From an uncultured Candidatus Bathyarchaeia archaeon (GTDB lineage Archaea; Thermoproteota; Bathyarchaeia; Bathyarchaeales; Bathyarchaeaceae), in the NCBI GenBank assembly GCA_964623205.1, contig CAZUQX010000004.1, positions 38,064-102,063 on the forward strand: DNA of 64,000 nucleotides, given 5' to 3'. This document shows positions 7,552-40,113 of this stretch, piece by piece. Each line of letters opens with the position of its first letter. Position 1 is the stretch's first letter. The translations under genes were made by a program, and so were the position numbers. The notes beneath the pieces were generated by a model. The model had not been told where the DNA came from. It saw only the letters and a list, made by a program, of their open reading frames with translations, and searched no databases.

Positions 7552-8439
7552 TTATTGGTTGAATGGTTCCTTTTGAATAACCATTGTCAAGCCATGACCA
7601 AGCTGTTTCAACATTCTTGTATTTGTAAGCATGAAATAGCTTGTTTGGTAGATTTTTCGTATGATTCTTGACTTTTCTAGTTTTGTCAGAATAGTCGGAA
7701 CAAAACTCCACGTTCTTCTAGATGTCACACTGTATCCCCTTTTCTTGTATGTCAATTCTAGCTTTTTAGTGTCAAACCTGACTTCAGTTATCCCGCTTGC
7801 TTCTCCTACGTGTGGACGAGCTGAGAATATTCTTTTGAGCGCATGGAGCGCCAACTCAGGTATAAGCGTTCTAGCGGGTTCATCTCCGAGTATGAAGGAT
7901 CTAGAAACCCTGAGAGCTTCGTGGATGACAGCTTCGGGGGAAGGAAAATGGTGCAAGGATTGATAGGCAATTGAACAATCAAAAACGTTGTCTTTAAAAG
8001 GTAAGTGCTCTCCATCGGCGCATACAAAATCGGCTTCAAACTTTCTTTGCCGTGCTCTCATCTTTGAAATTTTGAGAAAAGTAAGAGATGAATCAATGCC
8101 AATGGGGAACCCGCCTTCCAGAGATACCCACTCATCGAGCCAACCACTCCCACAGCCAATGTCTAAAATCTTTTGCTTTTTTATACCGCCTAATAATTTT
8201 GCAATTGTCTTGAAATTCTGTCTGTAGAGGAATGTCCACAAGACGCCGTATGAGTAAGGTTTGTTCAATTCTTTCATAAACGTCTTATTGCTTGAAAGAA
8301 CGGCTTTCCAAGAATTTCTCTCTTTTTGTTTCCATCTAATGGCTGTCATTAAAGGACCTCTAGGATGTTTGTGGACTTTAGTTTTTTTATGATTTTTAGG
8401 AGTGTTAGAAAGCGGGTTCCGTGGCGGTATCTGTTCCAT
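7552..8439 (-). CDS. Class I SAM-dependent methyltransferase
   Basis: Motif I ILDIGCGSGW and a downstream Methyltransf_11-like core (FDCSIAYQSLHHF). Start uncertain; an alternative Met lies at 8349. Confidence 0.7.
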   Translation of the reverse strand: MEQIPPRNPLSNTPKNHKKTKVHKHPRGPLMTAIRWKQKERNSWKAVLSSNKTFMKELNKPYSYGVLWTFLYRQNFKTIAKLLGGIKKQKILDIGCGSGWLDEWVSLEGGFPIGIDSSLTFLKISKMRARQRKFEADFVCADGEHLPFKDNVFDCSIAYQSLHHFPSPEAVIHEALRVSRSFILGDEPARTLIPELALHALKRIFSARPHVGEASGITEVRFDTKKLELTYKKRGYSVTSRRTWSFVPTILTKLEKSRIIRKIYQTSYFMLTNTRMLKQLGHGLTMVIQKEPFNQ

Positions 8440-8879: not shown

Positions 8880-11849
8880 ATGAATCAAAAAAAGCTAATG
8901 ATGATTTTGGCGACTACAACAATTATGGTAATGCTATTAGTTCCTATGCTAGCTTCTCAGTTAGCAGTTGCTGCAACTTATGATTCGGAGTATATGACAG
9001 TCGATGGAGTGCTAGATACCGACACGTACGTGCTCTGGCCATTTGATGACTCAAAGAGTCTGAAGGTCGGCTTCTCCAAATATGGAGAGATGATTGACCG
9101 GAACACTAAGGTCGGGATAGAATACGGCGGCGCAAGTGGTACTGACCCCTTCGCTACTGATCCAGCTACCGTTGCAGAATACGAGTGGGTTGAAGGCTGG
9201 ATATGTGACATCACCTACGAAGCGGGCGGAGTATACAAGAACATATGGGCACTTGCTCTTCACAGCGACTACTACAACACCTCCAGTATTGGCGGGGATT
9301 GGGTTGAAGGCGTCACGGGTGGTCCCACTAATCTCGCCTTCTTAGGCGGCAGGAAGACCAACGGCGGTGCTGCAACTGACCCCATCACAGTGTTGTACGA
9401 CGGACCTAGGCGGTTTGTTGGCTTATGCCATACGATTATCTACGAGGATGTCGACCACCAGTATCCATTGGTTAGTGTAACCATCACTGTGGTCTTCAAC
9501 AAAGTCAAGAAGCAGGTAATACTGTACAAGGATATCAAACGGTTGGATAATAGGAAATCTGTAGGAAACATGCAGGTCGAGTTCAGTGAAAGGGGCGAAT
9601 ATGACCTTGGCGCAGGAGCTCCACCGAAATCGTATGCATCCATCACCCAAAATATGACGACAGTTTACGATGAACACTATCAAGGCTGGTACACTGGTAG
9701 CGGTATGGAAGGCAAATATGATTTGCTTCAAATTATCGACGATGACATGGAATATGTTGCGTGGGCAGCATGGTGGCCAAAGCCTATTACTACATATGTT
9801 GAGGCTATCCATCTGATTGGTAGAGACACCATTCTTAATACGCTGACCACCCACGAGGAAACATGGACCGGCGACGGTGAATCGACTGATTACCTAATAG
9901 ATGATCATGAGCCAGTGAAAGAACCGTTCGATAGTGAGGACGGACTCTGGAGCGAGGATCCGATGGTGTTCGTAAACAACCAATATCGAATACAAGGTAC
10001 ACATTATTCATACAATGATGCAACTAATACAATAACGTTCTACCCCGCGTACATACCAGCATCTGGAGCCACAGTTAAGGCTGTGTACAAGTATGATGCC
10101 GATAAGAACGACATGAGCGAGGAGGTAGGCGTACCCTTTGCAAGCGCTGGCTGGGCCTTTGTGATGGACGAAACTACCGACCAGTTCCGTGCGGTAACCG
10201 TTTATGGAGTCTGTGACTACAACGACGGAACCGACGCAGACATGGTTGGTGAATCCACTAACACTATTGATACTGAAGTATGCTATTACATGGATGAGAC
10301 CTTTAATCCCTACGACCTCAAGCAAGCAGTTCACAAGGATACTAGACGATGGGTGTACAAAACTTCAAGCTTTTCCGGAAGTTCAATCACACTAGCAAAT
10401 GCGCCGATGGACCCATATCCATACCCAGTCTGGGATGAATACTGCACTTTTGCTGAAAGAGTGCTAGTTAATGGCGTTCTACAGGTACCCCAGAGGGCAG
10501 GCAGATCCTCGTATGACTACACCTTAAGCGTTAGCGCCACAACCGGCAAAGGCACCATCAACTTTAAGACTTCGAAGTCTGGAGTAGCGTTGAAGGTGCT
10601 ATACTCCACTCTACCCGAATGGAGTGATAGCGACACTGTCGAGCTTACTGACTATACTAACAACATGGCAAATGACACATCGGCGACTACTGTAAGTACA
10701 ACAATGGCTGAGTCAGGCCTGTTAGCGCCTATGGACCCCTTGGGTCTAAGTATGCGCCACAACTACACAGGCATGGATCCAACAGTGGTGATTGGAGGTA
10801 CCCAGCTTAACTTCACCGAAACAGTTAGCTTCAGTTATGCAATTGAAGTCGACGACTTCAAGGTGCTATATGATCCTAACCTTGATCCAGACGACGACGT
10901 CGATGCTCAAATATACACCTACGACACCATGAATGAAACAAGCGCTAACTTCACAGCAGCAGTGGCCGCCAGCGGTTACCGTTGGTTCGAAATAGATGCA
11001 GATTACGAAAACACTGTTGTCGACGATCTGTATATCCGAGTGACTCTAGATGTTACTGTAACACGTTGGCTAAACGCAACACACTCTTGGACCAACGTTA
11101 CATGCTCTCCAGAAATCTACTACTCCTATAATGCACACCAAGAGGGTGCATACGAATGGATGGTCGTGGGTAAAGACGCTGCAACCATCGACTCTGCAGG
11201 CGCAGCCTACATGACTCAAGCCTTTGACTCCAAGAAACAAATCCATGTCCAAGTCACAGGCTTAGACATCAAGGATGAAACATGGGGTCCAGAGGTTCCA
11301 AACGTCATGGCAGGAGCAACAACAGGCACTAGGACAGACTACTACTATGACTACCCAACCGACATGAGATGTGGTCTACACGACGACTGGTGCACAACCT
11401 GGCCAGTAGCCAGCAGCAACATGCTCTTCTCAGGCGGACCACGCGCAAACCTGGGAACAGAATACTTCAACGAATTCACAATGGCATTCTACGCATCAAA
11501 CGAATATGTAGTCAACAACACTGGACACCAAGATGAAATCCTAGCACTATCCTGTTGGGACAAACACTCCTACGGCGCCGGATACGCAACAATATCCGTC
11601 TACAAAGACCTCAACGGAACCATAGGCTTCCTAATTTGGGGTGTTGACGGGCAAGACACATACTTTGCAACCAAATGGTTCTGGGAATCAGGAATCTACT
11701 ACCTACAACAAGAGAACGACGGCGTCACTGACATAATACTAAAAATAAACTACGCAGCACACCCACCAACAATCAGCATAGTTGAACGCTTAGGCACAAT
11801 CAGCCACAAAGAACAACACGACTGTCCACCAACAGAATTCATACCTTAA
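8880..11849 (+). CDS. Secreted large surface protein, candidate S-layer/surface glycoprotein
   Basis: N-terminal signal/TM KKLMMILATTTIMVMLLVPMLASQLAVAA. No enzymatic motifs seen. About eleven N-x-S/T sequons by manual reading, mostly in the C-terminal half. Sits within the glycosylation island and is followed by a C-run/T-tract. Confidence 0.5.
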   Translation: MNQKKLMMILATTTIMVMLLVPMLASQLAVAATYDSEYMTVDGVLDTDTYVLWPFDDSKSLKVGFSKYGEMIDRNTKVGIEYGGASGTDPFATDPATVAEYEWVEGWICDITYEAGGVYKNIWALALHSDYYNTSSIGGDWVEGVTGGPTNLAFLGGRKTNGGAATDPITVLYDGPRRFVGLCHTIIYEDVDHQYPLVSVTITVVFNKVKKQVILYKDIKRLDNRKSVGNMQVEFSERGEYDLGAGAPPKSYASITQNMTTVYDEHYQGWYTGSGMEGKYDLLQIIDDDMEYVAWAAWWPKPITTYVEAIHLIGRDTILNTLTTHEETWTGDGESTDYLIDDHEPVKEPFDSEDGLWSEDPMVFVNNQYRIQGTHYSYNDATNTITFYPAYIPASGATVKAVYKYDADKNDMSEEVGVPFASAGWAFVMDETTDQFRAVTVYGVCDYNDGTDADMVGESTNTIDTEVCYYMDETFNPYDLKQAVHKDTRRWVYKTSSFSGSSITLANAPMDPYPYPVWDEYCTFAERVLVNGVLQVPQRAGRSSYDYTLSVSATTGKGTINFKTSKSGVALKVLYSTLPEWSDSDTVELTDYTNNMANDTSATTVSTTMAESGLLAPMDPLGLSMRHNYTGMDPTVVIGGTQLNFTETVSFSYAIEVDDFKVLYDPNLDPDDDVDAQIYTYDTMNETSANFTAAVAASGYRWFEIDADYENTVVDDLYIRVTLDVTVTRWLNATHSWTNVTCSPEIYYSYNAHQEGAYEWMVVGKDAATIDSAGAAYMTQAFDSKKQIHVQVTGLDIKDETWGPEVPNVMAGATTGTRTDYYYDYPTDMRCGLHDDWCTTWPVASSNMLFSGGPRANLGTEYFNEFTMAFYASNEYVVNNTGHQDEILALSCWDKHSYGAGYATISVYKDLNGTIGFLIWGVDGQDTYFATKWFWESGIYYLQQENDGVTDIILKINYAAHPPTISIVERLGTISHKEQHDCPPTEFIP

Positions 11850-11875
11850 AAAAGCCAAACAAGTCGCAAAAAAAT

Positions 11876-11893
11876 CCCCCCTTTTCTTTTTTT
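11876..11893 (+). terminator. Oligo-T archaeal-type terminator after the surface protein gene
   Basis: ccccccttttctttttttt immediately downstream of the stop at 11849. Confidence 0.45.
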
Positions 11894-12089
11894 ATATATT
11901 AAATACCCTTTTTCTCACACAGAAATTATAGCATACCTTTTCAATCGCTCACAAAATATGAAAAATCCACCTCACTTGCAAGGGTGAATAAAACACAAAT
12001 TTATCCTATTTTATAAATAAACTACCTTTAGATAGTAGTACCAACGTGAATCTGGCAAAAGAAATCAGTAACGAAAGGTAGTTCACCAA

Positions 12090-13244
12090 ATGATCAACAT
12101 ACTGGTCCCCTCCGCATCCCACCTCCTAACAGACCACCTCCTATCCAGCGAAGGAATCACATGCTACAACCTCTTCCAAAAACTAGAAAAACTCAACTAC
12201 CACTTCGAAGCAATCAGCCCCCAAATTCACATAAAAAAACCCTTAAACAACACAACACTCCACCAAACAGGCTCCTTCAAAACATCACCAACCATGAATC
12301 CCATCAAAAAATATCTCAGCCACATAGAAACTCTAATCCGCACCTACCGAAAATCTCTAGAAATCCTGCAAAAACAAAAAATCGACATAATACACCACAT
12401 GCTACCCGCCATCTACAACCAAACCTTCAACCCTCTCGCAATCCTCAAAAAAACCAAACAACCATTCATCTTCGGTCCAATATCCGCCCACATCTACCCA
12501 AGACCCATAGACGAAAAAATTCTGTCACACATAACGTCCAAACTCCACAAAAAAACAATCCAAAAATGCCACAGACTAATAACAATCACAAATCACGTAA
12601 AAAAGCTCTACCAAAACTTCTTCGACGAAGAAAAAATAATCACCATCCCATTAGGAGTAGACACAGCCCTCTTCAAACCCCCAAAAACCCAATTCCAGAA
12701 AAAAAACCCTGAAATACTCTTCGCAGGCTACCTCTACAAACTAAAAGGAGCAGAATACCTACTAAAAGCCACACAACTAATAGCGAAAAAACACAAAAAC
12801 GTAAAACTCAGAATAGTCGGAAACGGCCCCGACAAACCGCGCCTCATGAAATTAACCGAAACCCTGAAAATAGAAGACAAAACAATCTTCGAAGGTGAGG
12901 TCCCACACACAGAAATACCCAAATATTACCAGCAATGCGACATCTTCTGCTTCCCAACGCTCGGAGAACCCTTCGGAAAAGCCATAATAGAAGCCATGGC
13001 ATGCGCAAAACCAGTCATCGCATCAAACATCGGAGGACCAACAGAAATAATACAAAACCAAAAAACAGGACTGCTTGTGCCTCCAGCACAACCCAAAATT
13101 CTCGCCACAAAAATCCTAGAACTACTGGACAACGAAACCAAAATGAAAAACATGGGAACAAACGCAAGAAAAACTGCCATAGAGAAATACTCTTGGGAAA
13201 AAATAAGTGAAAAGTACCATAGCCTCTACAAAACTCTCAACTAA
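12090..13244 (+). CDS. Glycosyltransferase family 4
   Basis: C-terminal GT4 core FCFPTLGEPFGKAIIEAMACAKPVIASNIGGPTEIIQNQKTGLLVPP. The coding strand is extremely A+C-rich (see findings). Confidence 0.8.
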   Translation: MINILVPSASHLLTDHLLSSEGITCYNLFQKLEKLNYHFEAISPQIHIKKPLNNTTLHQTGSFKTSPTMNPIKKYLSHIETLIRTYRKSLEILQKQKIDIIHHMLPAIYNQTFNPLAILKKTKQPFIFGPISAHIYPRPIDEKILSHITSKLHKKTIQKCHRLITITNHVKKLYQNFFDEEKIITIPLGVDTALFKPPKTQFQKKNPEILFAGYLYKLKGAEYLLKATQLIAKKHKNVKLRIVGNGPDKPRLMKLTETLKIEDKTIFEGEVPHTEIPKYYQQCDIFCFPTLGEPFGKAIIEAMACAKPVIASNIGGPTEIIQNQKTGLLVPPAQPKILATKILELLDNETKMKNMGTNARKTAIEKYSWEKISEKYHSLYKTLN

Positions 13245-13267
13245 ACACACTTTTCAAAGAACCGTTT

Positions 13268-14752
13268 TTATCCTTTTACCACTCCTATCGGAACCAACCG
13301 GACAACACGAGTCGCTATCCCAACCTTGTCGCTCACATCCACCACCATATCGACATTCTTATACGCTGGATCAGCCTCTTCAGCCAAAACAACCGAACTG
13401 GCAGCTCTAACAACAATCCCTCGACCCTCCAAACCCTCCTTCACGTCTCCCCCCCAGAACCTCCTCTTCGCAGCCGACCGACTCATCACGCGACCAGCGC
13501 CATGAGCCGTAGAACCAAAAGAAACCTCCATCGCCTTAGTCGTTCCCACCAAAAGCCATGAACTTGTACCCATACTTCCCGGAATAATAACCGGCTGCCC
13601 CACAGACCGATAATCAGCAGGAACATCCCTATGTCCAGGCGGAAAGCACCGCGTCGCCCCTTTTCTATGAATCCAAACTTTAGTTCGCTTTCCATTCACC
13701 TGATGTTCTTCGATCTTTGCAATATTGTGAGCAACATCATAGACCAAATCCAAACCAAAATCGTCTGACGGTCTCTTTAAAACCTCTTCAAAGCTCTGAC
13801 GAACCCAATGAGTAATGACTTGACGATTGACGAAAGCATAGTTGACAGCGCAGGCCATAGCTTGATAATAGTCTTGAGCCTCGTCGCTGGTGGCAGGCGC
13901 ACATGCAAGTTCTCGATCAGGTAACGAAATATTGTATTTCTGGACAGCCCGTTCCATGACACGGAGATAATCCGAGCACGTCTGATGCCCAAATCCGCGG
14001 GAACCACAGTGGATCAAGACGGTAACTTGCCCTTCATGAGTAACGCCGAAGGTTTTAGCCACTTTCTGATCGTAAATTTTGTCAACCTTCCCGATTTCTA
14101 GGAAATGATTTCCTGAACCGAGGGTACCGCTTTGAGGAAGCCCCCGTCCCTTAGCTCTGGATGAAACCTTATCCGGGTTGGCGCCTTCCATCTGCCCCCC
14201 TTCCTCGCAGTGCTTGGCGTCTTCGGGTCGCCCTAACCCTTTTTTCACCGCCCACGATATTCCTTCAGTAATCAGCTGTTCAAGCTCATGTATGTTCAGG
14301 CGGAAGTCTTTACGGCGACTACCGAGTCCGCTGGGAACGTTCCTGAATATGGTGGTGGTGAGAGCTGCAAGGTAGGGTCGAATATCACCCTCCGAAAGGT
14401 TGGTGGTTAACAGACGGACCCCACAGTTGATGTCGTAGCCCACTCCCCCCGGGCTTATAACCCCCTCCTCATAGTCTGTAGCCGCAACCCCGCCTATGGG
14501 AAAACCGTATCCTTCGTGACCGTCGGGCAATGTAACAGCATACTTGTAAATGCCTGGTAAGTGAGCGACGTTGGCGCACTGATCGAGGGTTCGATCCGTT
14601 TTTATCTTTTGTATGAGTTGTTCGTCGGCAAAGACCATGCCAGGAACGCGCATACCGGACTTGTAACTTGTGGGTATGCGCCAGCTGTAATCATTAATCT
14701 TCTCGAGGGGAACATCTGATGCCTGCCCTCGGAATCTTCTTTGCCCACTCAT
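13268..14752 (-). CDS. rtcB: RNA-splicing ligase RtcB
   Basis: 494 aa with GYDINCGVR, GSGNHFLE, HCGSRGFGHQ and AHGAGR motifs. Length is normal, so no intein. Confidence 0.93.
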   Translation of the reverse strand: MSGQRRFRGQASDVPLEKINDYSWRIPTSYKSGMRVPGMVFADEQLIQKIKTDRTLDQCANVAHLPGIYKYAVTLPDGHEGYGFPIGGVAATDYEEGVISPGGVGYDINCGVRLLTTNLSEGDIRPYLAALTTTIFRNVPSGLGSRRKDFRLNIHELEQLITEGISWAVKKGLGRPEDAKHCEEGGQMEGANPDKVSSRAKGRGLPQSGTLGSGNHFLEIGKVDKIYDQKVAKTFGVTHEGQVTVLIHCGSRGFGHQTCSDYLRVMERAVQKYNISLPDRELACAPATSDEAQDYYQAMACAVNYAFVNRQVITHWVRQSFEEVLKRPSDDFGLDLVYDVAHNIAKIEEHQVNGKRTKVWIHRKGATRCFPPGHRDVPADYRSVGQPVIIPGSMGTSSWLLVGTTKAMEVSFGSTAHGAGRVMSRSAAKRRFWGGDVKEGLEGRGIVVRAASSVVLAEEADPAYKNVDMVVDVSDKVGIATRVVRLVPIGVVKG

Positions 14753-32178: not shown

Positions 32179-32435
32179 CTTTGTTTTCCATTGGACGCGC
32201 CTAGAGGCTTGTTAAGTGTGTAAACAGATTTTTAATGCGCCCGCGCATGCATCATAATTCAGTGAATATTATCGCGCGCGCACTTAAAATTGTTAGCAAT
32301 GAATCAATACGAGTTTTCAAACCTTCACAAGAAATAGAGCACAGTTATATGAGCTCGTAAAACAGAAAAAGCTAAGATTAGACTTATTTTTTGGTAATAA
32401 GCCAATTTTCACTTCCTTTTTCAAAAAGAAGCTTT

Positions 32436-32480
32436 GTGGACGGGGCGGGATTTGAACCCGCGGCTTCAGCGATGCCAACG
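32436..32480. repeat. attL: orphan copy of the 3' half of tRNA-Ala
   Basis: gtggacggggcgggatttgaacccgcggcttcagcgatgccaacg, identical to 40038-40082. Confidence 0.9.
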
Positions 32481-33332
32481 ACGCAAAACTTCCGAAAAAA
32501 CAAGCTAAAAATCAGATTAACGGAAAAAATCTTGTCAGATTTTAGCGAATTTATGCGTGTTAATATGAGACTTGCTTCGTATACAGTAAAAACCTCAACT
32601 GAGATTGCAGCTAGGTTCCTGAAAAGTGCTGAATATGTTGTAAGTTATGAAACCATCTCTGACTATCTGAAAGGTTATCTCAGCAAGAGACCTAAAACCT
32701 ATAACAGCCAGATAACCGCTCTAAGAAGATTTGTGAGAGATTTTCTGGGATATGAGAAACTGATTATGCCTTTCCGAATGGCTCCTGTAGACCCAGCGGG
32801 GAACAATGTCAAGCTGCCCTCAAAGTCTCAATTGAGAAAAGGTTTTGAAGTTCAATGCGACAACAGAGCTAAAGCAATTTATCTTTTTACCGCTACTTCA
32901 GGCTTGAGAAAAGGCGAGATTTTAGGTCTAACAAGAGACAAGATTGATCTCAAACTGAGAGCTGCAATTCCACAGCATTTCACTAGGGTTAAGAGAAGCG
33001 GTATCACGTTCTACAATGTTGAGACTGAGAAATGGCTAGAAAAATATTTGGTTTCAAGGTCGGATAGTGATTCAAGACTTTTTGTAATTAGTGATCGGAA
33101 ATGGAAGAAGATTTGGAAGGATTCAAGCAAGGCTGCAAATGTAAAGATTACACCTCAAGTACTTAGAGCTTGGTTTGCAACGGAAATGGGAGAACTTGGC
33201 GTTCCTGATAGGTTTGTGGATGTTTTTCAAGGAAGAGCTCCACGAAGCGTCCTCGCAAAGCATTACACGGGCAAGGGATTGGAAAGGTTGAAGCGGATTT
33301 ATGACAAGGCGGATTTGAAGGTGTTCAGTTAA
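32436..33332 (+). CDS. int: Integrase C-terminal (catalytic) fragment, Int(C), SSV-type tyrosine recombinase
   Basis: The frame reads through att (VDGAGFEPAASAMPT) into ...ATSGLRKGEILGL...LRAWFATEM...FQGRAPRSVLAKHYTG (R...R...Y). There is no start of its own; the upstream TTG at 32391 lies in host flank. Confidence 0.75.
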   Translation: MDGAGFEPAASAMPTTQNFRKNKLKIRLTEKILSDFSEFMRVNMRLASYTVKTSTEIAARFLKSAEYVVSYETISDYLKGYLSKRPKTYNSQITALRRFVRDFLGYEKLIMPFRMAPVDPAGNNVKLPSKSQLRKGFEVQCDNRAKAIYLFTATSGLRKGEILGLTRDKIDLKLRAAIPQHFTRVKRSGITFYNVETEKWLEKYLVSRSDSDSRLFVISDRKWKKIWKDSSKAANVKITPQVLRAWFATEMGELGVPDRFVDVFQGRAPRSVLAKHYTGKGLERLKRIYDKADLKVFS

Positions 33333-33443
33333 AGTGTAGGGCGCGCAGAACCAAGTTAAGATTGTAAATGGGCGTGCATGTTAAATGTTTATTTCAAAAC
33401 TCTATGAAAGCAATAAAAAGAGATTTCAAATTAAAACCATGAT

Positions 33444-34172
33444 TTACCTGAATGTACCTTTGAGGAATTTTTGTTGCTCCTCTTCAAGTCTCTCTATTGG
33501 AGGTTCTAACCAGTTAAATCGATTTAATATCCAAATAGTGTGATTTAGTGCAATCTTATCTCCCTTTCCAAGTAACTCGTCAATAGTGATGTTCTTTTCT
33601 CGTTTGAGATCAGGAATATTGCAAGTATATCCATTAAAGAGAAACCTTCTAGAGTCAAAAAATGTCAATTTGCGATCTTTCATTCCATGCAAAGTAATAG
33701 ACATAAAACAAGTTCCGTTGAACAAGTTCTTTTGTGCAAGTCTTGTAGCAAACTCATAGATTTCTGTAAGACGATACAATGTCATAATCACACCCAAAAC
33801 TGATCCTGGTTTAATATGAGCATATTTAGAAGGTCCAAAAATAGGGCTAGATTCACCTAACCAATCCTCATGACACGCAAAAAGATGCACAAATTGTCCA
33901 CTTTGGTAGATGCGCCATATTTCTTTGTAATACTCAAAATCTGTTATTGACTCCCAATAATCCGTACCAGCAATATAAGGGGGATTCCTTCTACTTACGT
34001 GTGGATAATCCCAACCACGTAATGTTACCTTACTCTCTCGAATTTTTTTGAGACATTCTGGAAGATTAAAACGCTCCTCTTCAAACGCGGTCGGACGGAT
34101 AACAATTTTCCAATAACCGTGTGATTTGATTTTGGTAAGAACAGTTTCTGGAGTTATCTTTTCTTCTGTCAT
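33444..34172 (-). CDS. Hypothetical protein, partner of the AlbA_2 gene
   Basis: 242-aa ORF whose start overlaps the upstream stop (ATGA). No motif recognised. Confidence 0.55.
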   Translation of the reverse strand: MTEEKITPETVLTKIKSHGYWKIVIRPTAFEEERFNLPECLKKIRESKVTLRGWDYPHVSRRNPPYIAGTDYWESITDFEYYKEIWRIYQSGQFVHLFACHEDWLGESSPIFGPSKYAHIKPGSVLGVIMTLYRLTEIYEFATRLAQKNLFNGTCFMSITLHGMKDRKLTFFDSRRFLFNGYTCNIPDLKREKNITIDELLGKGDKIALNHTIWILNRFNWLEPPIERLEEEQQKFLKGTFR

Positions 34173-34783
34173 ATTATATCCTCAATTTGATTGTCGAATG
34201 ATTCCTCGTCCCTTGTATCGCTAGTGGCAGCTATAATGCGTATTAATCCCAAATCAGAATAGCGTTTGATGTCTTGTCTCAATTTTTTATCTACGGCCAT
34301 GTCGATTATCTCTCGCATTTCGGTCTCAGATGGTACTTCAATAGTTTCTGGTTTCCCTCTGGATCGAGTATAGATTTTTCCTCGATGCATTAGACTACCA
34401 TAATCCTTTTTGCAGATAATTGGTGAGTTATTAAATTCCATTACTCGGATCACAACAAACTTCCGTTCATTATGTTCAGGTTTTAATACTTCAAGATCAA
34501 CATAAGGATCTGCGTAGTCTTTTACGAAGTCTTTTATGGAATCCAAATCGTAAGAATCATAATCAGCCTCATTCATGCCCACTGCCTTATAAGTGCCATC
34601 AGTTTGTTCTTCTTCTTTCCCAACAACAATATACCCGCCATCCTTTATATTCGCCATTGCCAATATTGATTTAGTAATCATTGCTTTGAATTTCTTCTCT
34701 TTCCAAGGATTTGAACTCTTAAATTCAATATGCCTTTCTTCAAATGGATGAGTAATCACTTCATTGACAAGTACACTCATCAA
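34169..34783 (-). CDS. AlbA_2 (Schlafen-like, divergent AAA_4) domain protein
   Basis: HIEFKSS...KSILAMANIKDGGYIVVGKEE...FVVIRV...GKIYTRSRGKPETIEVPSETEMREI fits the AlbA_2 pattern (E-F-K, AfaN-GG-iGv, yiR-g). Confidence 0.6.
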   Translation of the reverse strand: MMSVLVNEVITHPFEERHIEFKSSNPWKEKKFKAMITKSILAMANIKDGGYIVVGKEEEQTDGTYKAVGMNEADYDSYDLDSIKDFVKDYADPYVDLEVLKPEHNERKFVVIRVMEFNNSPIICKKDYGSLMHRGKIYTRSRGKPETIEVPSETEMREIIDMAVDKKLRQDIKRYSDLGLIRIIAATSDTRDEESFDNQIEDII

Positions 34784-34935
34784 ACTTCATCTTCTATTGG
34801 CGGTGAGGAATAACAATAATTATGATGTTAGATATAATATCAATATTTTGTAGCTAACTAATATGCGCGCATGTTTCTCTGATAGCTTGACCGAGGTTGT
34901 AAATAACAGTTTAATCTTACAAGGGAGTACATCGG

Positions 34936-34976
34936 TCAATTTATCAATCAATTTATAAATTTATCAATAAATTTAC
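34936..34976. repeat. Iteron-like AT-rich short repeats (AATTTAT x4) in the divergent intergenic region of the element
   Basis: tcaatttat at 34936 and 34948, aatttat at 34958, aatttac at 34970. Confidence 0.5.
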
Positions 34977-35069
34977 TATATATTTAAAAACTACATCATT
35001 TTTTTGTCACATGGTTTACGTTGTCCATTGGTGGAGACAAATCCAAGTGCTTAAGAGGTGTAAAATAAA

Positions 35070-35348
35070 ATGGTTGAGCTTGTTGGAACAGTTAAAACCG
35101 TTAACCCTAAACTTGTCACTTTGATTTCTGGGTACACAACTGTTCATCTACCTGTAAAAGATCCCGATGTTTACTTGACGCTGGTAAAGATGAGTGAAGT
35201 TGCGTCACAACAAGGAGTGAGAATCCGCAACATTAAATTTGTGACAGACGACGACAAGGGCTACGTTACGGACATTCAATGGAAAAATAAAGAAGGAAAG
35301 TGGATTTCGCTCTTGGAGCGCTTCAAAGATGGCAAATATAAAGCGTAA
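35070..35348 (+). CDS. Hypothetical small protein
   Basis: 92-aa ORF with an AGAGGTG SD-like sequence upstream. Overlaps the primase gene start by 20 nt. Confidence 0.45.
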   Translation: MVELVGTVKTVNPKLVTLISGYTTVHLPVKDPDVYLTLVKMSEVASQQGVRIRNIKFVTDDDKGYVTDIQWKNKEGKWISLLERFKDGKYKA

Positions 35349-37614
35349 GTATCCTAGAAATATTACTAGAAGAATAAGCGCTTTGAGAATAAAGCGTCTT
35401 GCAGCCATTGGCTCACCAATCAAAATACCTGAAGTGTTGGTTAAACGATTAAAGCCGTTCGGACCCCATTTTCTAAAAGTATCAAAACCTATTCCAGGTA
35501 ATAGCAAGTCAGGTAAAAGAGCTGTTGAACATGCTTGGCAAGAACGGCCATACGAAGCTGACAGCGAAGAGTTACAGCAATGGGTTAGAGAAGGAAACAA
35601 TTACGGCGTTATGGCTGGTCAAGGGATTATAATCATTGATTTGGACAGAAAAAATTTAGCGGAGAAGCTTGAAGCGGAAATTGACACCTTCACAGTCCAA
35701 ACTGGCAGAGTCGGCGGCGAGGGAAGACATTATTATTTGCGAAGTGACGCCTCAGAAAACGGTTTGTTATTTGAGGACGGTGAAAACGTCGGCAACATTC
35801 AAGTTTTTAACAAGTTCGTGGTTGGTCCTAGATGTCACCATAATTCAGGAGGGGTATATCGAATAATAAAGGATGTTCCTTTAGCGTGGATATCAAAGCA
35901 ACAGTTAAAACAGATTTTCGGCGACAGCCTTAAATGGACTGGTGAAGTTCGAGAGCGAAACAGGGAAGAAGCTGAAGATGAGAAAATCCGAACAAATCTA
36001 GAAATACCAATGGCGTTGCTTGTGGATTTATCTGAAATGGAGTGTAAGGGAGATGAATACCAAGGCAGTCATCCGCTTCACGGCTCAACTACAGGGCAGA
36101 ATTTTTGCGTAAACATCAAGGAGAACGTGTGGCATTGTTTCCGATGCAACAGTGGGGGAGGTGGACTTATGTGGATAGCTGTTAAGCATGGGGTATTGGA
36201 GTGCCACGAAGCGCAGAAAGGGGCGTTGAGAGGGTTAAAATTTATTGAAGCCGTCAAATTTGCGCAAGAAGAAGGTTTCCAAATCAAGGTTCCAGACGAA
36301 GAGATCAGCCCAGACGTAGAACGGTTTTTTGAAGGAAAACCACCGAAGTTTGTAAGCGCCTACGTTGCTAAAGAGATAATGCAAGAAACCAATTTTCTAA
36401 CAGAAGGAGAAAGAGGCTTAATTTTCAGATACAACTCAAAGAAAGGCATCTACGAACCCGACGGCGAAGACTACATTATGGCACAGACAGCAAAGAAGCT
36501 GGGGAAACATTACAGCATAAGAAGAAAAGCGGAGATACAAAATTTCATCAGAGCATCCACCATCAGAGAGATACCTGAAACAAGCAAGTATCTATTAGCC
36601 GTCAAGAACGGCGTAATGGACGTCAGAACATTAGAATTAAAGCCTTTCAGCCCCGAATATTACATATTCAACGCTTTACCTGTAGTTTATGATCCTAAGG
36701 CGGAATGCCCACAATTCAACAAGTTTTTGCCTGAAGTTGTGCCTTCAGAAAAAGACAGGCTTGTATTACAGGAGCATGGTGGATATTGCCTATTGAAGGA
36801 CAACAGATTTCAAAAGGCTTTAATGTTAACTGGAAAGAAACAGAACGGCAAAAGCACGTTTCTTAATACGCTAACAGCGATGTTAGGAAAAGAAAACGTA
36901 AGTGCAATTCCGTTACAGATTCTCAGCGATAGCCGCTTCAGATTTTACGTTTCTCAACTACACAACAAAATGGCTAACATCTGCGCAGATTTGCCCGCTG
37001 AGAGATTGAAGGAAACAGACATGTTCAAGAAAATAGTTGCAGGCGACATGGTCACAGGAGAATTCAAGTTTCATCCCCCATTTGACTTTAAGCCCTACAC
37101 CAAACTGCTTTACTCAGCCAATCAGCTACCTGAATTGCCGAAGGACGTAGAAGCGTTTCTTGTAAGATGGAGCATGGTAGAGTTTCCAAACACCTTTCTG
37201 CCAGGCGATCCAAAAAGAGACCCGCAGTTAATAGAGAGATTGACTACGCCAGAAGAGTTAAGCGGCGTCCTCAACTGGTGCCTAGAAGGATTACAGAGGC
37301 TGCTAAAACAAAAAGGGTTCACGGTAGGCGACACATTAGAAGAACAGGAAGACCGCTGGATTGTGGAAGGAGACAGCGTCAAAGCCTTTTACGAGCGGTG
37401 TATCCAAGAGCACATAGGTGAACACGCAGAAAAAAGCAGAGTTTACGACGCTTACATCAAATTTTGCGAAAAGCACAAAGTAACGCCACTAACGCGCCGA
37501 AGGTTCACAAGAGAGTTCAGAGAGACAAGCAAAGCAGACAGCGGCAGCACATCCGACAAAGACGGAAAAACCATAAGAGTCTGGTGGCACATTCAGGTCA
37601 AGGATGAAGATTAG
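35329..37614 (+). CDS. Replication protein: N-terminal primase-polymerase, Zn-finger, D5_N/SF3 (P4-type) helicase
   Basis: NYGVMAGQGIIIIDLD...GRHYYL...VVGPRCHHNSGGVYRI (prim-pol); WHCFRCNSGG (Zn); Walker A GKKQNGKST with a D5-like context. Confidence 0.85.
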   Translation: MANIKRKYPRNITRRISALRIKRLAAIGSPIKIPEVLVKRLKPFGPHFLKVSKPIPGNSKSGKRAVEHAWQERPYEADSEELQQWVREGNNYGVMAGQGIIIIDLDRKNLAEKLEAEIDTFTVQTGRVGGEGRHYYLRSDASENGLLFEDGENVGNIQVFNKFVVGPRCHHNSGGVYRIIKDVPLAWISKQQLKQIFGDSLKWTGEVRERNREEAEDEKIRTNLEIPMALLVDLSEMECKGDEYQGSHPLHGSTTGQNFCVNIKENVWHCFRCNSGGGGLMWIAVKHGVLECHEAQKGALRGLKFIEAVKFAQEEGFQIKVPDEEISPDVERFFEGKPPKFVSAYVAKEIMQETNFLTEGERGLIFRYNSKKGIYEPDGEDYIMAQTAKKLGKHYSIRRKAEIQNFIRASTIREIPETSKYLLAVKNGVMDVRTLELKPFSPEYYIFNALPVVYDPKAECPQFNKFLPEVVPSEKDRLVLQEHGGYCLLKDNRFQKALMLTGKKQNGKSTFLNTLTAMLGKENVSAIPLQILSDSRFRFYVSQLHNKMANICADLPAERLKETDMFKKIVAGDMVTGEFKFHPPFDFKPYTKLLYSANQLPELPKDVEAFLVRWSMVEFPNTFLPGDPKRDPQLIERLTTPEELSGVLNWCLEGLQRLLKQKGFTVGDTLEEQEDRWIVEGDSVKAFYERCIQEHIGEHAEKSRVYDAYIKFCEKHKVTPLTRRRFTREFRETSKADSGSTSDKDGKTIRVWWHIQVKDED

Positions 37615-37837
37615 AAAGAGAAATTAGACAACGAAGAGACAACTTCCATATTTGCGCTTGTTACGTTTGTTACAGTTTCACTGTACTTCTTTCCTGTATT
37701 TTATAATCTCCCAATTTTTTTCGGGAAACAGATATAGAAAAACGTGTAACGTTTGCTTGGGATATGTATGGAGTAGCCCATCCAAGAGCTCAAAAATTCC
37801 TCCTTGACTTTCTCAATAACGGCGGCCTGAAAGACAT

Positions 37838-38869
37838 ATGATAAAACGACCTTTTCTGTGGTTTGCTCAAGTAATAAATGGAAAACCGCAACCATGGAAA
37901 CAATTTCCCTTGGAAGGACTAATGGTTAACGCCTATGAAATCCTGAAAAAAACAAAGGCAGATAGTGAAGTAAGAAGCCAAGGAATCCACAAATACATGG
38001 GATTTGATGGCCCAATAATGATGGATTCTGGAGGCTTTCAATTTATGAAAAAACAGGAACTAAATGTTGATCCAAAGGAGATTTTAAGATTATACCAAGT
38101 AAGCAAACCGGATTTTGGGATTGTTTTAGACCATCCTTTGGGTCCTAATCTCGACCATAAAGAAAAATTGGATAGGTGGTTAAGGACCCTGGCAAACACG
38201 CGGATAATGCTGGCTAATCATAACACGGATTCCACAGAATTGGTGCCAGTAATTCACGGTCATGAACTATCTAAAATTGAATGGTTCATAGAAGAGTTAG
38301 AAAAAATATCATCCTTCAATTATTTGGGAATAGGGAGTCTGGTTCCTTCAGTTTTTTCAACAAAAGGGGCTGGCGGTATTACAAATGTGGTTGAGATTGT
38401 AAATTTTGTGAAAAAGAAATTAGGGAACAGGAAAATTCACGTTTTTGGAGTTGGTAGTACTCTAACCATGCACCTTATGTTTTATGCAGGGGCGGATAGT
38501 GTTGATTCATCGGGGTGGAGAACAAAAGCCGCTTATGGTGCCATTCAACTTCCAGGAATAGGAGATAGATACGTCACATCAAGAACTAGGCACAAAAAGT
38601 ATCGAGATGTCTCGGAAGAAGATAAAGAAATTCTAGCTTCTTGCAGATGTCCAATATGTGAAAGTGAGGGTCTTGAGAAACTAAGAATTAGCTTTACCTC
38701 GAGAGCGATGCATAATGCTTGGGTTTACAATGAAGAAGTAAAGAAAGCCAGGGAATTGATTAGATTAGGAAAATATGAAGATTATGTGGAAGGCATAATT
38801 ACAAAAACGCCTTTCTCTTACGTTTTCAAGTTCGCCAAAGAACTTAATGAAAATCAGCCTTCCTCTTGA
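37838..38869 (+). CDS. dpdA: TGT-family TIM-barrel protein, DpdA-like (putative DNA 7-deazaguanine transglycosylase)
   Basis: MMDSGGFQF, GIGSLVP, HVFGVGS, VDSSGW, Zn motif CRCPIC...H. Only 343 aa, with no PUA or C-terminal tRNA-binding domains. Mobile-element context. Confidence 0.6.
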   Translation: MIKRPFLWFAQVINGKPQPWKQFPLEGLMVNAYEILKKTKADSEVRSQGIHKYMGFDGPIMMDSGGFQFMKKQELNVDPKEILRLYQVSKPDFGIVLDHPLGPNLDHKEKLDRWLRTLANTRIMLANHNTDSTELVPVIHGHELSKIEWFIEELEKISSFNYLGIGSLVPSVFSTKGAGGITNVVEIVNFVKKKLGNRKIHVFGVGSTLTMHLMFYAGADSVDSSGWRTKAAYGAIQLPGIGDRYVTSRTRHKKYRDVSEEDKEILASCRCPICESEGLEKLRISFTSRAMHNAWVYNEEVKKARELIRLGKYEDYVEGIITKTPFSYVFKFAKELNENQPSS

Positions 38870-38944
38870 GCATACATTTTTTTGTTTGCATTTAGCATGT
38901 TCAAAAGCTTTTTGAACCAAATGGGAGAATATGCTAAAAGCACT

Positions 38945-39003
38945 GGCGGGTAGGTGGTGCCTCCCACCCGTTCCGCCATATAAACCCCGGTGTAGGGAGG
39001 TGA
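38945..39003 (+). promoter_or_regulatory. Structured 5' leader of queT with potential SD-sequestering pseudoknot (riboswitch-like)
   Basis: Nested stems ggcgg/ccgcc (38945-49 / 38973-77) and ggtgg/ccacc (38953-57 / 38964-68). Loop-side cctccc (38960-65) is complementary to the SD gggagg (38995-39000). Confidence 0.35.
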
Positions 39004-39008
39004 AATGA

Positions 39009-39536
39009 TTGAAAACTAGTGAACTAAGTTTAGCAGTAGTCTTTTCTAGTTTGTATGCGGTTCTTCTCGTTGCTTTGGCTCCGATATCTTTTGGTCCTGT
39101 TCAACTGCGTGTTGCTGATTGCCTGATTCCATTAGCAGCTTTGTTTGGTTGGCCAGTTATTGCCGGTGTAACAGTTGGTTGCTTCTTGGGCAATGCATAC
39201 TTCTGGCTAGGTCCTCAGGATGTGGTCTTGGGAACAATCGCTAATCTAATTGCAGCAACCATCATTTTTGTGCTTAGAAACCGGCAATTCTTGGCTTGCG
39301 TCTTAGGTTCTCTTCCAATCGGAATCATCGTAGGAGGCTACCTTTGGATTTTCTTTCCCCCACCAGACATCTTCGGATTACAGTTGCCAATGTGGAGCGC
39401 CATGATCGTAAGCATCACAATTAGTACTTTGATAGCGGTTGCGGGAATAGGCTACGCGCTACTTAAAGCATTAAGCCAACAAAATTTGGTCAATACCTTC
39501 AAAACATTTGGACTAAAAATATACTCTCAGGACTGA
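39009..39536 (+). CDS. queT: QueT-family queuosine-precursor transporter
   Basis: TTG start 5 nt after GGAGGTGA. LYAVLLVALAPISFGPVQLRVADCLIPL and five or six TM helices fit the QueT pattern. Confidence 0.65.
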   Translation: MKTSELSLAVVFSSLYAVLLVALAPISFGPVQLRVADCLIPLAALFGWPVIAGVTVGCFLGNAYFWLGPQDVVLGTIANLIAATIIFVLRNRQFLACVLGSLPIGIIVGGYLWIFFPPPDIFGLQLPMWSAMIVSITISTLIAVAGIGYALLKALSQQNLVNTFKTFGLKIYSQD

Positions 39537-39842
39537 GCATGCGTGTATAAGGAGTTTACTCGCATCCACAAACTTCCCAGATTTTTTTCTTGTTTTATTA
39601 ACACCGTGCATTCTTTTTGAAAATGCGTGTAGGCTTTCTTTGATGACATTAGTTCTCTACTAAAATCTTCCCACTGAGGGGCACAGCAGTTACATGCCAG
39701 TCCTTTGTTAGCAATGGTGGCGGTTCTTCTTCTATGATATGGTAAAATATTGTTTATTGCCTCAAGCGATCCGACAGTACTTACAGCAATGCAAACTATT
39801 CAGAAGTCCTATACGGTTGGTTCTAAATAGAATTATTTAGAG

Positions 39843-40082
39843 TTGAATGGAATGGCCAAAAAGACCTATACAACAATTTACTTGGACAAACACGTAATCC
39901 GAAAATCCAAAGATTTAGGCTTGAACATCTCAAAGACTTGTGAAAACGCCTTAAAAGAAGCTATAAGACGCCTAGAAGGATCAAATCCTAAAACAACCTC
40001 TGGAAACTCGCACGCTGGCACTCCTGAACAAATAGTGGTGGACGGGGCGGGATTTGAACCCGCGGCTTCAGCGATGCCAACG
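39843..40082 (+). CDS. int: Integrase N-terminal fragment, Int(N), with RHH-like segment
   Basis: 80 codons ending exactly at the att end (…VDGAGFEPAASAMPT). KKTYTTIYLDKHVIRKSKDLGLNISKTCENALKEAIRRL is ribbon-helix-helix-like. Beyond att the frame runs into tRNA sequence. Confidence 0.7.
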
Positions 40083-40113
40083 CTGCGATCGTTCCAGGCT
40101 GATCTACCCGCCC
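40036..40113 (-). tRNA. tRNA-Ala (anticodon GGC), CCA encoded
   Basis: Manual cloverleaf: GGGCGGG-TA-GATC-AGCCTGGAAC-GATC-G-CAGCG-TTGGCAT-CGCTG-AAGCC-GCGGG-TTCAAAT-CCCGC-CCCGTCC-A-CCA. The G3:U70 alanine identity pair is present. Confidence 0.9.
40038..40082. repeat. attR: copy forming the 3' half of the intact tRNA-Ala
   Basis: 45/45 identity with 32436-32480. Flanks diverge immediately on both sides. Confidence 0.9.

Follow-up and report, generated by a model that had tools for sequence, protein, structure and literature searches.

A stand-alone TGT-family gene on an SSV-type integrative element of Bathyarchaeia: a candidate orphan DNA-modifying enzyme with its origin in a chromosomal island

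Introduction

DNA marks derived from 7-deazaguanine are known from the bacterial Dpd system, from many phages and from a few archaeal viruses. To our knowledge, no self-marking system of this kind has been characterised in archaeal cells. Here we analysed a stretch of 64,000 nucleotides (hereafter the window) from an uncultured Candidatus Bathyarchaeia archaeon (contig CAZUQX010000004.1, positions 38,064 to 102,063 of the forward strand), in which a 343-residue protein of the TGT family and a QueT-family membrane protein are encoded side by side. The two genes are cargo of a 7.6-kb SSV-type integrative element, which lies in a tRNA-Ala(GGC) gene of a Bathyarchaeia-like chromosome. We propose, with a probability of roughly 0.55, that this TGT is the orphan modification half of a Dpd-like system and would insert preQ0 into DNA. 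The pair derives from a conserved chromosomal island (hereafter the parent island), which encodes a NurA-like protein, a HerA-like protein, a STAND-like protein of ~1400 residues, a DUF5591 (ArcS2-like) protein and the TGT, followed in some lineages by QueT.

Comparison with described systems

The published system nearest to the parent island is BRC (BREX-related capture), which combines HerA/FtsK, a STAND NTPase, a GNAT protein and a TGT homologue proposed to mark self DNA (PMC12839542). The island shares with BRC the HerA-type translocase, the STAND NTPase, the TGT homologue and the occurrence in both archaea and bacteria. The defining components of BRC, however, are HerA plus PglZ, DUF6079 and DUF4007. 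The last three were not seen in the islands in Pfam labels and scans, and the islands have NurA-like and DUF5591 genes. A plasmid of Natronosalvus rutilus (L039, 4147-10842) carries TGT-like genes of 734 and 344 codons beside an annotated BREX ATP-binding gene and is possibly a BRC locus; these haloarchaeal plasmid TGTs fell outside the family of the window TGT in our tree.

The bacterial Dpd system (DpdA/B/C with DpdD-K) follows the same logic as that proposed for the island: a TGT paralogue places preQ0 in the DNA, another enzyme then modifies it, and DNA without the mark is restricted by linked ATPases and nucleases. DpdA and the window TGT have in common the two catalytic aspartates, the substrate-binding Asp and the histidine at position 181 of DpdA (PMC10164549). 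The islands differ from Dpd in that their partners are NurA-, HerA- and STAND-like proteins, not DpdD-K, and in that the converting enzyme would be ArcS2-like, not DpdC. Neither the element nor the parent islands carried dpdB, dpdC or dpdD-K, save for a weak DpdK/DrmC-like phospholipase D match in one island only (L001).

Among archaeal mobile genomes, the Sulfolobus viruses STSV1, STSV2 and STSV4 (Bicaudaviridae) resemble the parent module of the TGT, since a short stand-alone TGT-fold enzyme is encoded there beside a stand-alone DUF5591 protein. STSV-2 encodes DpdA and ArcS2 and its DNA carries a 7-deazaguanine, and the stand-alone ArcS2 and DpdA2 of phage nt-1 give rise to dG+ in DNA in E. 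coli (PMC10516641). STSV DpdA is only ~28% identical to the window TGT, however, and lacks the CxCxxC zinc motif that the window TGT has. The viral gene order is reversed (DpdA, then ArcS2), QueT is absent from the viruses, and the window element holds only a stub of the ArcS2-like gene.

In some phages DpdA is encoded on its own, in others together with the preQ0 transporter YhhQ (PMC6884629). As on the present element, a mobile carrier there brings the modifying enzyme alone, and the precursor is made by the host or imported. The present case differs in its transporter, which is QueT instead of YhhQ, in its carrier, an archaeal integrative element of 7.6 kb and not a virus, and in that the module is demonstrably a fragment torn from a chromosomal island. 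Plasmid pART37 of Paenibacillus sp. 37 (L040, 1-3702) has a VUT/YhhQ-family gene (with a queuosine-salvage gene ontology term) directly upstream of a 689-codon dpdA, and another TGT gene two genes further on. This plasmid is a bacterial precedent for the pairing of DpdA with a precursor transporter. The first-pass annotation of the window had stated that it knew of no DpdA-QueT pairing on an element with an SSV-type integrase. Phages (PMC6884629) and the Paenibacillus plasmid already show that DpdA-type enzymes, in some cases accompanied by a preQ0 transporter, occur on mobile elements; what is new is the enzyme lineage, the small SSV-type integrative carrier, and the visible capture scar together with the parent island.

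The catalytic domain of the tRNA enzyme ArcTGT (TgtA) shares with the window TGT the zinc site (CxCxxC...H), the catalytic residues and a preQ0-type pocket. In contrast to ArcTGT, the window TGT is devoid of the C1, C2 and C3/PUA domains, and the gene context and phyletic spread of its family are those of a mobile conflict system.

Results

The transglycosylase and its active site

The captured region comprises the following features.

37742..37841, + strand: remnant of a DUF5591 (ArcS2-like) gene, last ~31 codons, at the left edge of the fragment (tblastn and DNA collinearity)
37838..38869, + strand: stand-alone TGT catalytic domain, 343 amino acids, predicted to act on DNA as a preQ0:guanine transglycosylase, DpdA-like by gene context (Pfam TGT, residues, structural model, tree and dN/dS)
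38946..39003, + strand: conserved QueT leader, candidate regulatory RNA, ending in the Shine-Dalgarno-like GGGAGGTGA (conservation)
39009..39536, + strand: QueT-family membrane protein, 175 amino acids, predicted importer of 7-deazaguanine precursors (Pfam QueT)

The open reading frame (ORF) of the TGT starts with ATG and matches Pfam TGT (PF01702) with 99.3 bits (E 3e-28). Both ORFs were found as the first-pass annotation had described them, and so were the motifs that it had quoted for the TGT, MMDSGGFQF (61-69), HVFGVGS (201-207), VDSSGW (222-227) and CRCPIC (269-274) with H292. It had also described a stand-alone catalytic domain that lacks the C-terminal tRNA-binding domains, and this was borne out by the alignment of the protein with only residues 47-333 of the 582-residue ArcTGT of P. 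horikoshii (1iq8), that is, with the catalytic domain. The AlphaFold model showed a confident TIM barrel and zinc subdomain, with a predicted local distance difference test score (pLDDT) of 89.6 and a predicted TM-score (pTM) of 0.89.

The catalytic residues Asp63 and Asp223, the substrate-binding Asp98 and the zinc ligands C269, C271, C274 and H292 are invariant across the TGT family. Asp223 aligns with the nucleophile of DpdA, Asp63 with its general acid/base, Asp98 with the aspartate that binds the substrate and His140 with His181 of the Salmonella enzyme. In Salmonella DpdA, His181 contacts the base (PMC10164549). His140 is also found in STSV DpdA, in phage DpdAs and in a haloarchaeal plasmid TGT, and Gln is found at this position in ArcTGT and bacterial TGT. 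The pocket of the window TGT reads GSLVP, as compared with GGVVP in ArcTGT, GGMVP in Salmonella DpdA, GGIVP in STSV DpdA and GGLA in bacterial TGT. Enzymes of the VVP, MVP and IVP types use preQ0, and the GGLA-type bacterial TGT uses preQ1 (PMC5699537). The LVP pocket of the window TGT resembles those of the preQ0-using enzymes.

The parent island

The TGT was linked to NurA, HerA and the large protein in 16 distinct loci (L001-L003, L007-L009, L011-L016, L019, L021, L034 and L035); the contigs L031-L033 are parts of one further island locus, outside the 16. In all complete loci whose TGT is at least 46% identical to that of the window, a DUF5591 gene of ~257 codons lies immediately before the TGT gene, and in all of these except L010 the genes for the NurA-like (~371 residues), HerA/DUF87 (~547 residues) and ~1400-residue proteins adjoin it as well. 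The archaeal hosts of the island are Bathyarchaeia, Thermoproteota, Korarchaeota, Nitrosopumilus, Thermoplasmata, Archaeoglobales and Hydrothermarchaeum, and the bacterial hosts are Chloroflexota, Bacillota and Crocinitomicaceae. DUF5591 adjoins the TGT in Gemmataceae and Pyrinomonadaceae, too.

The genes linked to the TGT are typical of conflict systems. NurA is a nuclease family, and the HerA-like protein matched the defence HerA models of PADLOC with 122 bits. The ~1400-residue protein has a P-loop with Walker A and B motifs (GEWGEGKT and DEFEE) and a long coiled-coil tail. Its Pfam matches (nSTAND, AAA_22 and wHTH) were all weak, and a search of the PDB gave only coiled-coil noise. The DUF5591 proteins of the islands matched STSV2 ArcS2 at 30-39% identity, and that of L001 showed PF17884 (54.7 bits) and the ArcS core motif PCSTIKPYSESRSY. 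A distant member of the TGT family in Ca. Heimdallarchaeum endolithica (L017, 6545-11988; 37% identical) has genes for a UvrD helicase and a PD-(D/E)XK nuclease on its upstream side and one for an N6/N4 DNA methylase downstream. Distant members thus seem to change partners yet to stay among DNA enzymes. In a limited literature search, no published description of the parent island was found.

Short QueC-like genes (165-170 codons, Pfam QueC; canonical QueC is longer) were observed in several islands no more than a few kb away from the TGT (L002, 12385-12882; L034, 11749-12261; L010, about 8909-9211; L013, about 1452-1991).

Origin of the TGT-QueT pair

The window segment 37742-39545 is collinear with L033 1183-2987 over 1.8 kb at 83% nucleotide identity. 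The same fragment (37742-39546) was 83% identical to L031 at the nucleotide level and matched L001 in two blocks at 83-86%. The homology starts at 37742, ~100 nt before the start codon of the TGT, and ends at 39545/39546, ~10 nt past the stop codon of QueT. At its left edge, the DUF5591 stub aligned by tblastn with residues 221-256 of the L001 DUF5591 protein at 78% identity. The residues of the stub are TFAWDMYGVAHPRAQKFLLDFLNNGGLKD, and its stop codon overlaps the start codon of the TGT (ATGA), an overlap that is kept as in the parent locus. Upstream of the stub, the sequence showed no homology to the parent locus, and the frame has stops. In the closest relatives (L033, L031 and L032), the TGT is 89% identical to that of the window and is directly followed by QueT, which is the arrangement of the window, too. 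L001 has three accessory genes between the two.

The collinear DNA, the C-terminal stub of DUF5591 and the preserved ATGA overlap together show that the TGT-QueT pair was torn from the 3' side of a DUF5591-TGT-QueT unit in the chromosome of a related archaeon. The fragment is inserted between the primase gene and the N-terminal part of the integrase gene. The first-pass annotation had presented the pair as an element-borne module. The pair was not assembled by the element but is a captured chromosomal fragment with a DUF5591 stub. A module of the viral type, DpdA with ArcS2, would have an intact DUF5591 gene beside the TGT; no such gene is present there in the window, and the parent islands have it.

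The window TGT differs from the nearest island copies at 11-13% of its protein residues, with a ratio of nonsynonymous to synonymous substitution rates (dN/dS) near 0.1 (0.07-0.13 for the TGT against island copies; 0.23 for QueT). No sampled donor can therefore have given rise to the fragment very recently. In addition, both genes are intact over their full length, none of the catalytic residues is missing, the QueT leader is preserved, and the fragment ends neatly beyond QueT. These facts speak against a neutral passenger, that is, a fragment recently acquired by illegitimate recombination that has no selected role and is either too young to have decayed or inactive without its island partners. 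Such a passenger would nevertheless explain why the DUF5591 gene was severed in the capture and survives only as a dead stub. It would also fit the following: the only related element found (L046) is without this cargo, no other element with it occurred in any collection searched, and the exact TGT protein was found only in the metagenome that holds the element. Furthermore, a host with a housekeeping QueT of its own would have no need of the copy on the element. Taken together, we regard a neutral passenger as unlikely, if well worth bearing in mind.

Placement of the TGT family

A neighbour-joining tree was calculated from 57 sequences and 337 columns with 200 bootstraps, ArcS being left out. 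ArcTGT formed a group of its own (98.5%), and a grouping of the window TGT family with ArcTGT was found in 0/200 bootstraps. The tree split ArcTGT plus E. coli Tgt from all DpdA-like enzymes plus the TGT family (94.5%). Within the latter set, the family grouped with STSV DpdA, the nearest named relative of the window TGT, and with the TGT of an Aulosira plasmid (79%). Nesting of the protein inside the ArcTGT clade had been set beforehand as one outcome that would speak against DNA modification, and the tree gave no such nesting. The family would seem to be a lineage of its own, with 25-28% identity to both ArcTGT and STSV-type DpdA and so at much the same distance from either. Among viral proteins, STSV DpdA was the best match to the window TGT (29-31% identity, E 1e-15 to 8e-17).

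A word-indexed search returned 597 relatives of the TGT (clusters at 90% identity), and among the matches listed nearly all were stand-alone proteins of 340-350 residues. A profile search of 1.84 billion representatives gave 219 clusters (50% identity) at E up to 1e-30, again nearly all short and stand-alone. The family is found in archaea (Bathyarchaeia and other Thermoproteota, Korarchaeota, Nitrosopumilus, Thermoplasmata, Archaeoglobales, Hydrothermarchaeum, Heimdallarchaeota, Aenigmatarchaeota and Methanomethylicia) and in bacteria (Chloroflexota, Bacillota, Bacteroidota, Planctomycetota and Acidobacteriota). This spread, scattered over phyla, points to horizontal transfer. None of the 10 long family members tested had a PUA domain. 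Long members were also considered as PUA or ArcS2 fusions; none was found, and one is fused to DUF6884. In an uncultured archaeon (L020, 9926-12340), two tandem TGT-family paralogues of 389 and 392 residues are encoded side by side.

In searches with curated models, the window TGT stayed below the cut-offs of both the DpdA and the ArcTGT families. TgtA (TIGR00432) gave 111.7 bits against a cut-off of 350, DpdA (NF041059) 53 bits against 200 and over residues 41-226 only, and ArcS (NF040592) 31.6 bits against 440; the DpdA model of PADLOC gave 46 bits. The archaeal-virus subfamily DpdA4 is marked by DUF6610 (PF20314) and was defined in PMC10516641. As the Pfam scan of the TGT gave PF01702 alone, there was no sign of DpdA4. 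When profiles were compared with the PDB, ArcTGT (1iq8) scored 108 bits, Salmonella DpdA (7ui4) 36 and bacterial TGT ~34. In Foldseek, 1iq8 and 1j2b were on top, with a query-normalised TM-score (TMq) of 0.81 for ArcTGT; all TGTs were between 0.75 and 0.82, and 7ui4 was outside the top 50. The comparison of folds, made with a predicted model, was uninformative as to specificity for DNA or tRNA. The designation DpdA-like in the first-pass annotation can be kept in the sense that the protein groups with DpdA-like enzymes, nearest to STSV DpdA, but the curated DpdA model falls far short of its cut-off and the closest protein is the catalytic domain of ArcTGT.

These scores raise the possibility that the window TGT is a tRNA enzyme, a minimal ArcTGT that places preQ0 at G15 of tRNA, so that enzyme and importer would together boost the archaeosine of the host. 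In its zinc site and throughout its active site the protein has ArcTGT-type residues, its best matches in sequence and structure are to the ArcTGT catalytic domain, and QueT serves these archaea as a housekeeping gene, presumably in tRNA modification. ArcTGT without its PUA domain is reportedly still active, so that the missing PUA domain alone is not decisive. In the window TGT, however, all three C-terminal domains are missing, the TgtA score is far under its cut-off, and His occupies the position where tRNA TGTs have Gln. The family lies outside the ArcTGT clade and is nearly always linked to HerA/NurA/STAND or to UvrD, nuclease and methylase genes, which is not a context of tRNA modification. 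Moreover, we know of no archaeosine in bacterial tRNA, and a role at G15 of tRNA can therefore not explain the bacterial members. From these facts, an action on tRNA seems improbable.

In type IV CBASS (cyclic oligonucleotide-based anti-phage signalling system), the TGT-like Cap10 occurs with the QueC-like Cap9, and a substrate other than DNA has been proposed. That the window TGT would likewise attach a 7-deazaguanine to a protein or small molecule and mark no DNA is very improbable: Cap10 (PDB 9ntn) is indeed among the weak matches (18-23 bits) and short QueC-like genes lie near the TGT in L002, L034, L010 and L013, but the similarity to Cap10 is marginal and covers ~55 residues only, the full active site of a nucleic-acid TGT and the zinc subdomain are kept, no CD-NTase or CBASS genes were seen in the islands examined, and the partner is of the ArcS2 type, whose known substrate is preQ0 within nucleic acid (PMC10516641).

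QueT and its leader

The QueT ORF starts with TTG and contains the motif ISFGPVQLRVADCLIPL. It matched Pfam PF06177 over residues 9-156 with 92.6 bits (E 3.7e-26; gathering cut-off 33.7). QueT is the S component of transporters of the energy-coupling factor (ECF) type, the substrate of which was only predicted as of a 2016 review (PMC5699537). No gene for an ECF A or T component was found beside QueT in the window.

Relatives of QueT numbered 1110, and the best 120 of these were all at least 75% identical. In typical Bathyarchaeia, QueT lies in a conserved neighbourhood (QueT, an HD-domain gene and, further on, DUF2153 and DUF1385) with no TGT near. QueT is thus a widespread housekeeping gene of Bathyarchaeia, and its pairing with the TGT may be partly positional. 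QueT was located within 3 kb of the TGT in at least three island arrangements (L001, L033 and L034), and L035, the contig of which ends in the QueT leader, is probably a fourth. The association of the two genes is therefore real but loose. On the element, QueT may be a functional supply, or it may merely have been adjacent to the TGT in the donor. The first-pass annotation had held that dependence on salvage would explain the transporter. This explanation is still available but is weaker than proposed, because QueT is a housekeeping gene with its own synteny and may have come along with the fragment.

A leader of ~58 nt, GCGGGTAGGTGGAGCCTCCCACCCGTTCCGCAATAAAAAYCCCGGAGTAGGGAGGTGA, precedes every bathyarchaeal QueT examined, both island-linked (L001, 13850-13914; L033, 2378-2447; L034, 13038-13094; L035, 11930-11974) and housekeeping (L073, L074 and L080, ~7937-8000). 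A TATA-like box is found ~30 nt upstream of the leader. The loop CCTCCC could pair with the Shine-Dalgarno-like GGGAGG. A known riboswitch was considered and rejected: there was no Rfam match, even when the motif was searched by itself with E values of up to 10 allowed, the folding energy was ordinary (z-score -0.95), and no covariation was seen, because the leader sequences are too similar. A pattern scan of viral contigs gave chance matches only. Its conservation makes the leader a candidate for a regulatory RNA and possibly for a 7-deazaguanine riboswitch. A limited literature search found no description of an archaeal QueT leader, and we know of no preQ-type riboswitch described in archaea.

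The integrative element

Outside the captured fragment, the element and its target comprise the following features.

32391..33332, + strand: C-terminal part of a split SSV-type tyrosine integrase (Pfam Phage_integr_3 43 bits, Phage_integrase 40 bits)
32436..32493, no strand: attL, left end of the element and partial copy of the 3' part of tRNA-Ala (direct repeat)
33444..34172, - strand: gene for a 242-residue protein with no assigned function (ORF)
34169..34783, - strand: Schlafen/AlbA_2-domain protein, 204 amino acids (Pfam SLFN_AlbA_2 49.8 bits)
35070..35348, + strand: small gene of 92 codons upstream of the primase gene (ORF)
35329..37614, + strand: primase-helicase of the P4/D5 type with PrimPol, Zn-ribbon, D5_N and DUF5906, 761 amino acids, replication gene (Pfam, NCBIfam and PHROG)
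39843..40095, + strand: N-terminal part of the integrase, running into the att core (Pfam CcdA; reconstitution)
40036..40113, - strand: tRNA-Ala(GGC), integration target, with attR (40038-40095) inside (ARAGORN; Rfam tRNA 57.5 bits)

The element is 7,602 bp long, with ends at 32436-40095. It is bounded by a direct repeat of 58 nt (32436-32493 and 40038-40095) that is 90% identical and has an identical core of 45 nt. When the element was circularised in silico, the N- and C-terminal parts of the integrase joined in frame across the att core into a continuous ORF of 363 codons. An att site within the integrase gene, which is split on integration, is the hallmark of SSV-type integration. The att site in the integrase gene, the split of this gene and the tRNA target make this an SSV-type (type I) integrase element. 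The position of the TGT between the primase-helicase gene and QueT on an element of this type, which had been noted at first, is thus correct; the gaps on its two sides are 223 nt and 139 nt. Equally, no queC, queD, queE, dpdB or dpdC gene was found on the element by Pfam, NCBIfam and PADLOC scans and a reference-protein search, in line with the earlier statement that it lacks queCDE and dpdB.

The G+C content is 0.40 in the element and 0.44 in its flanks, and the depth in the source metagenome is 25 and 20-22, respectively. No joints indicating excision or a circular form were seen in the assembled contigs, the only material examined. The primase-helicase gave 194.6 bits with NCBIfam primase_Cterm and 298 bits with PHROG DNA primase. 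Searches with the primase found no relative of the element among viral contigs and three primase relatives in metagenome contigs, of which only L046 (primase 48% identical) was informative. The cargo slot of L046 holds another small gene, with no TGT and no QueT.

The 242-residue and 92-residue proteins had no significant match in Pfam, NCBIfam, PHROGs and PADLOC. The gene for the former overlaps the Schlafen/AlbA_2 gene by 4 nt, and this pair (33444-34783, - strand) could be a second conflict-type cargo. The N-terminal part of the integrase starts with a ribbon-helix-helix segment (39843-39980), which matched the CcdA antitoxin family of Pfam with 32 bits over residues 7-45. Elsewhere in the window, positions 11000-14000 showed a strong asymmetry of strand composition, with the GC skew reaching -0.47 and the AT skew +0.40 at 12-13 kb; an Rfam scan of these positions gave no match.

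Discussion

The exchange of guanine through a covalent Asp intermediate is established for both TGT and DpdA. We infer from gene context and tree position that the substrate of the window TGT is DNA rather than tRNA. The enzyme would then swap guanine for preQ0 in double-stranded DNA in the manner of DpdA, with Asp223 forming the covalent intermediate, and the preQ0 would come from the host or be imported via QueT. In the parent island, the ArcS2-like partner may convert dPreQ0 further, for example to dG+, and the HerA-, NurA- and STAND-like proteins would attack unmarked DNA. On the element, the TGT would work as a modifier without partners, much as orphan methyltransferases do on plasmids and in phages; the DNA of both element and host would then carry dPreQ0, and restriction would be blunted. 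It is known that 7-deazaguanines shield phage DNA from many restriction enzymes (PMC6884629).

Several observations weigh against this proposal. The closest characterised protein by both sequence and fold is the catalytic domain of the tRNA enzyme ArcTGT, and DNA modification by the window TGT is predicted from gene context. The tree is distance-based only and its branches are long, so that long-branch attraction is possible. Gln occupies the position of His140 in the NCBI-annotated DpdA of Nostoc (cyanobacterial) and of Paenibacillus; the His/Gln signature is therefore not universal, and it is suggestive, not diagnostic, of a DNA-type enzyme. Bacterial DpdA requires DpdB, and the window TGT may likewise need an ArcS2-like or STAND partner that is absent from the element. 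The low dN/dS may mostly reflect the history before the capture. The window QueT is 87% identical in protein and 88.7% in nucleotide sequence to a housekeeping copy (L073) and 78-81% identical in protein to the island-linked copies, and is thus nearer to the former. Finally, the contigs of the source metagenome, which can show presence but not absence, held nothing with at least 80% nucleotide identity to the NurA, HerA, STAND and DUF5591 genes of L005. There is accordingly no obvious cognate restriction to evade there.

The observations on island, element and leader can be joined in a wider reading, which we offer tentatively and consider possible, though less likely than not. The five-gene island (NurA-like, HerA-like, STAND-like, ArcS2-like and TGT) would be an undescribed system that resembles restriction-modification, is based on 7-deazaguanine and has spread horizontally among many archaeal phyla and several bacterial ones. 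The element would have stolen its modification half as an anti-restriction device, and the QueT leader could be a 7-deazaguanine riboswitch.

If the enzyme acts on tRNA after all, the finding is a mobile copy of a minimal ArcTGT, and its importance is modest. Under the preferred reading, in which the TGT is an orphan DNA modifier, the window points to a self-marking system of archaeal cells, represented by a well-populated TGT family tied to ArcS2-like, HerA, NurA and STAND genes. That the torn-off modifying half is found on a mobile element is what one would expect if modification-dependent defence and mobile DNA are engaged in an arms race.

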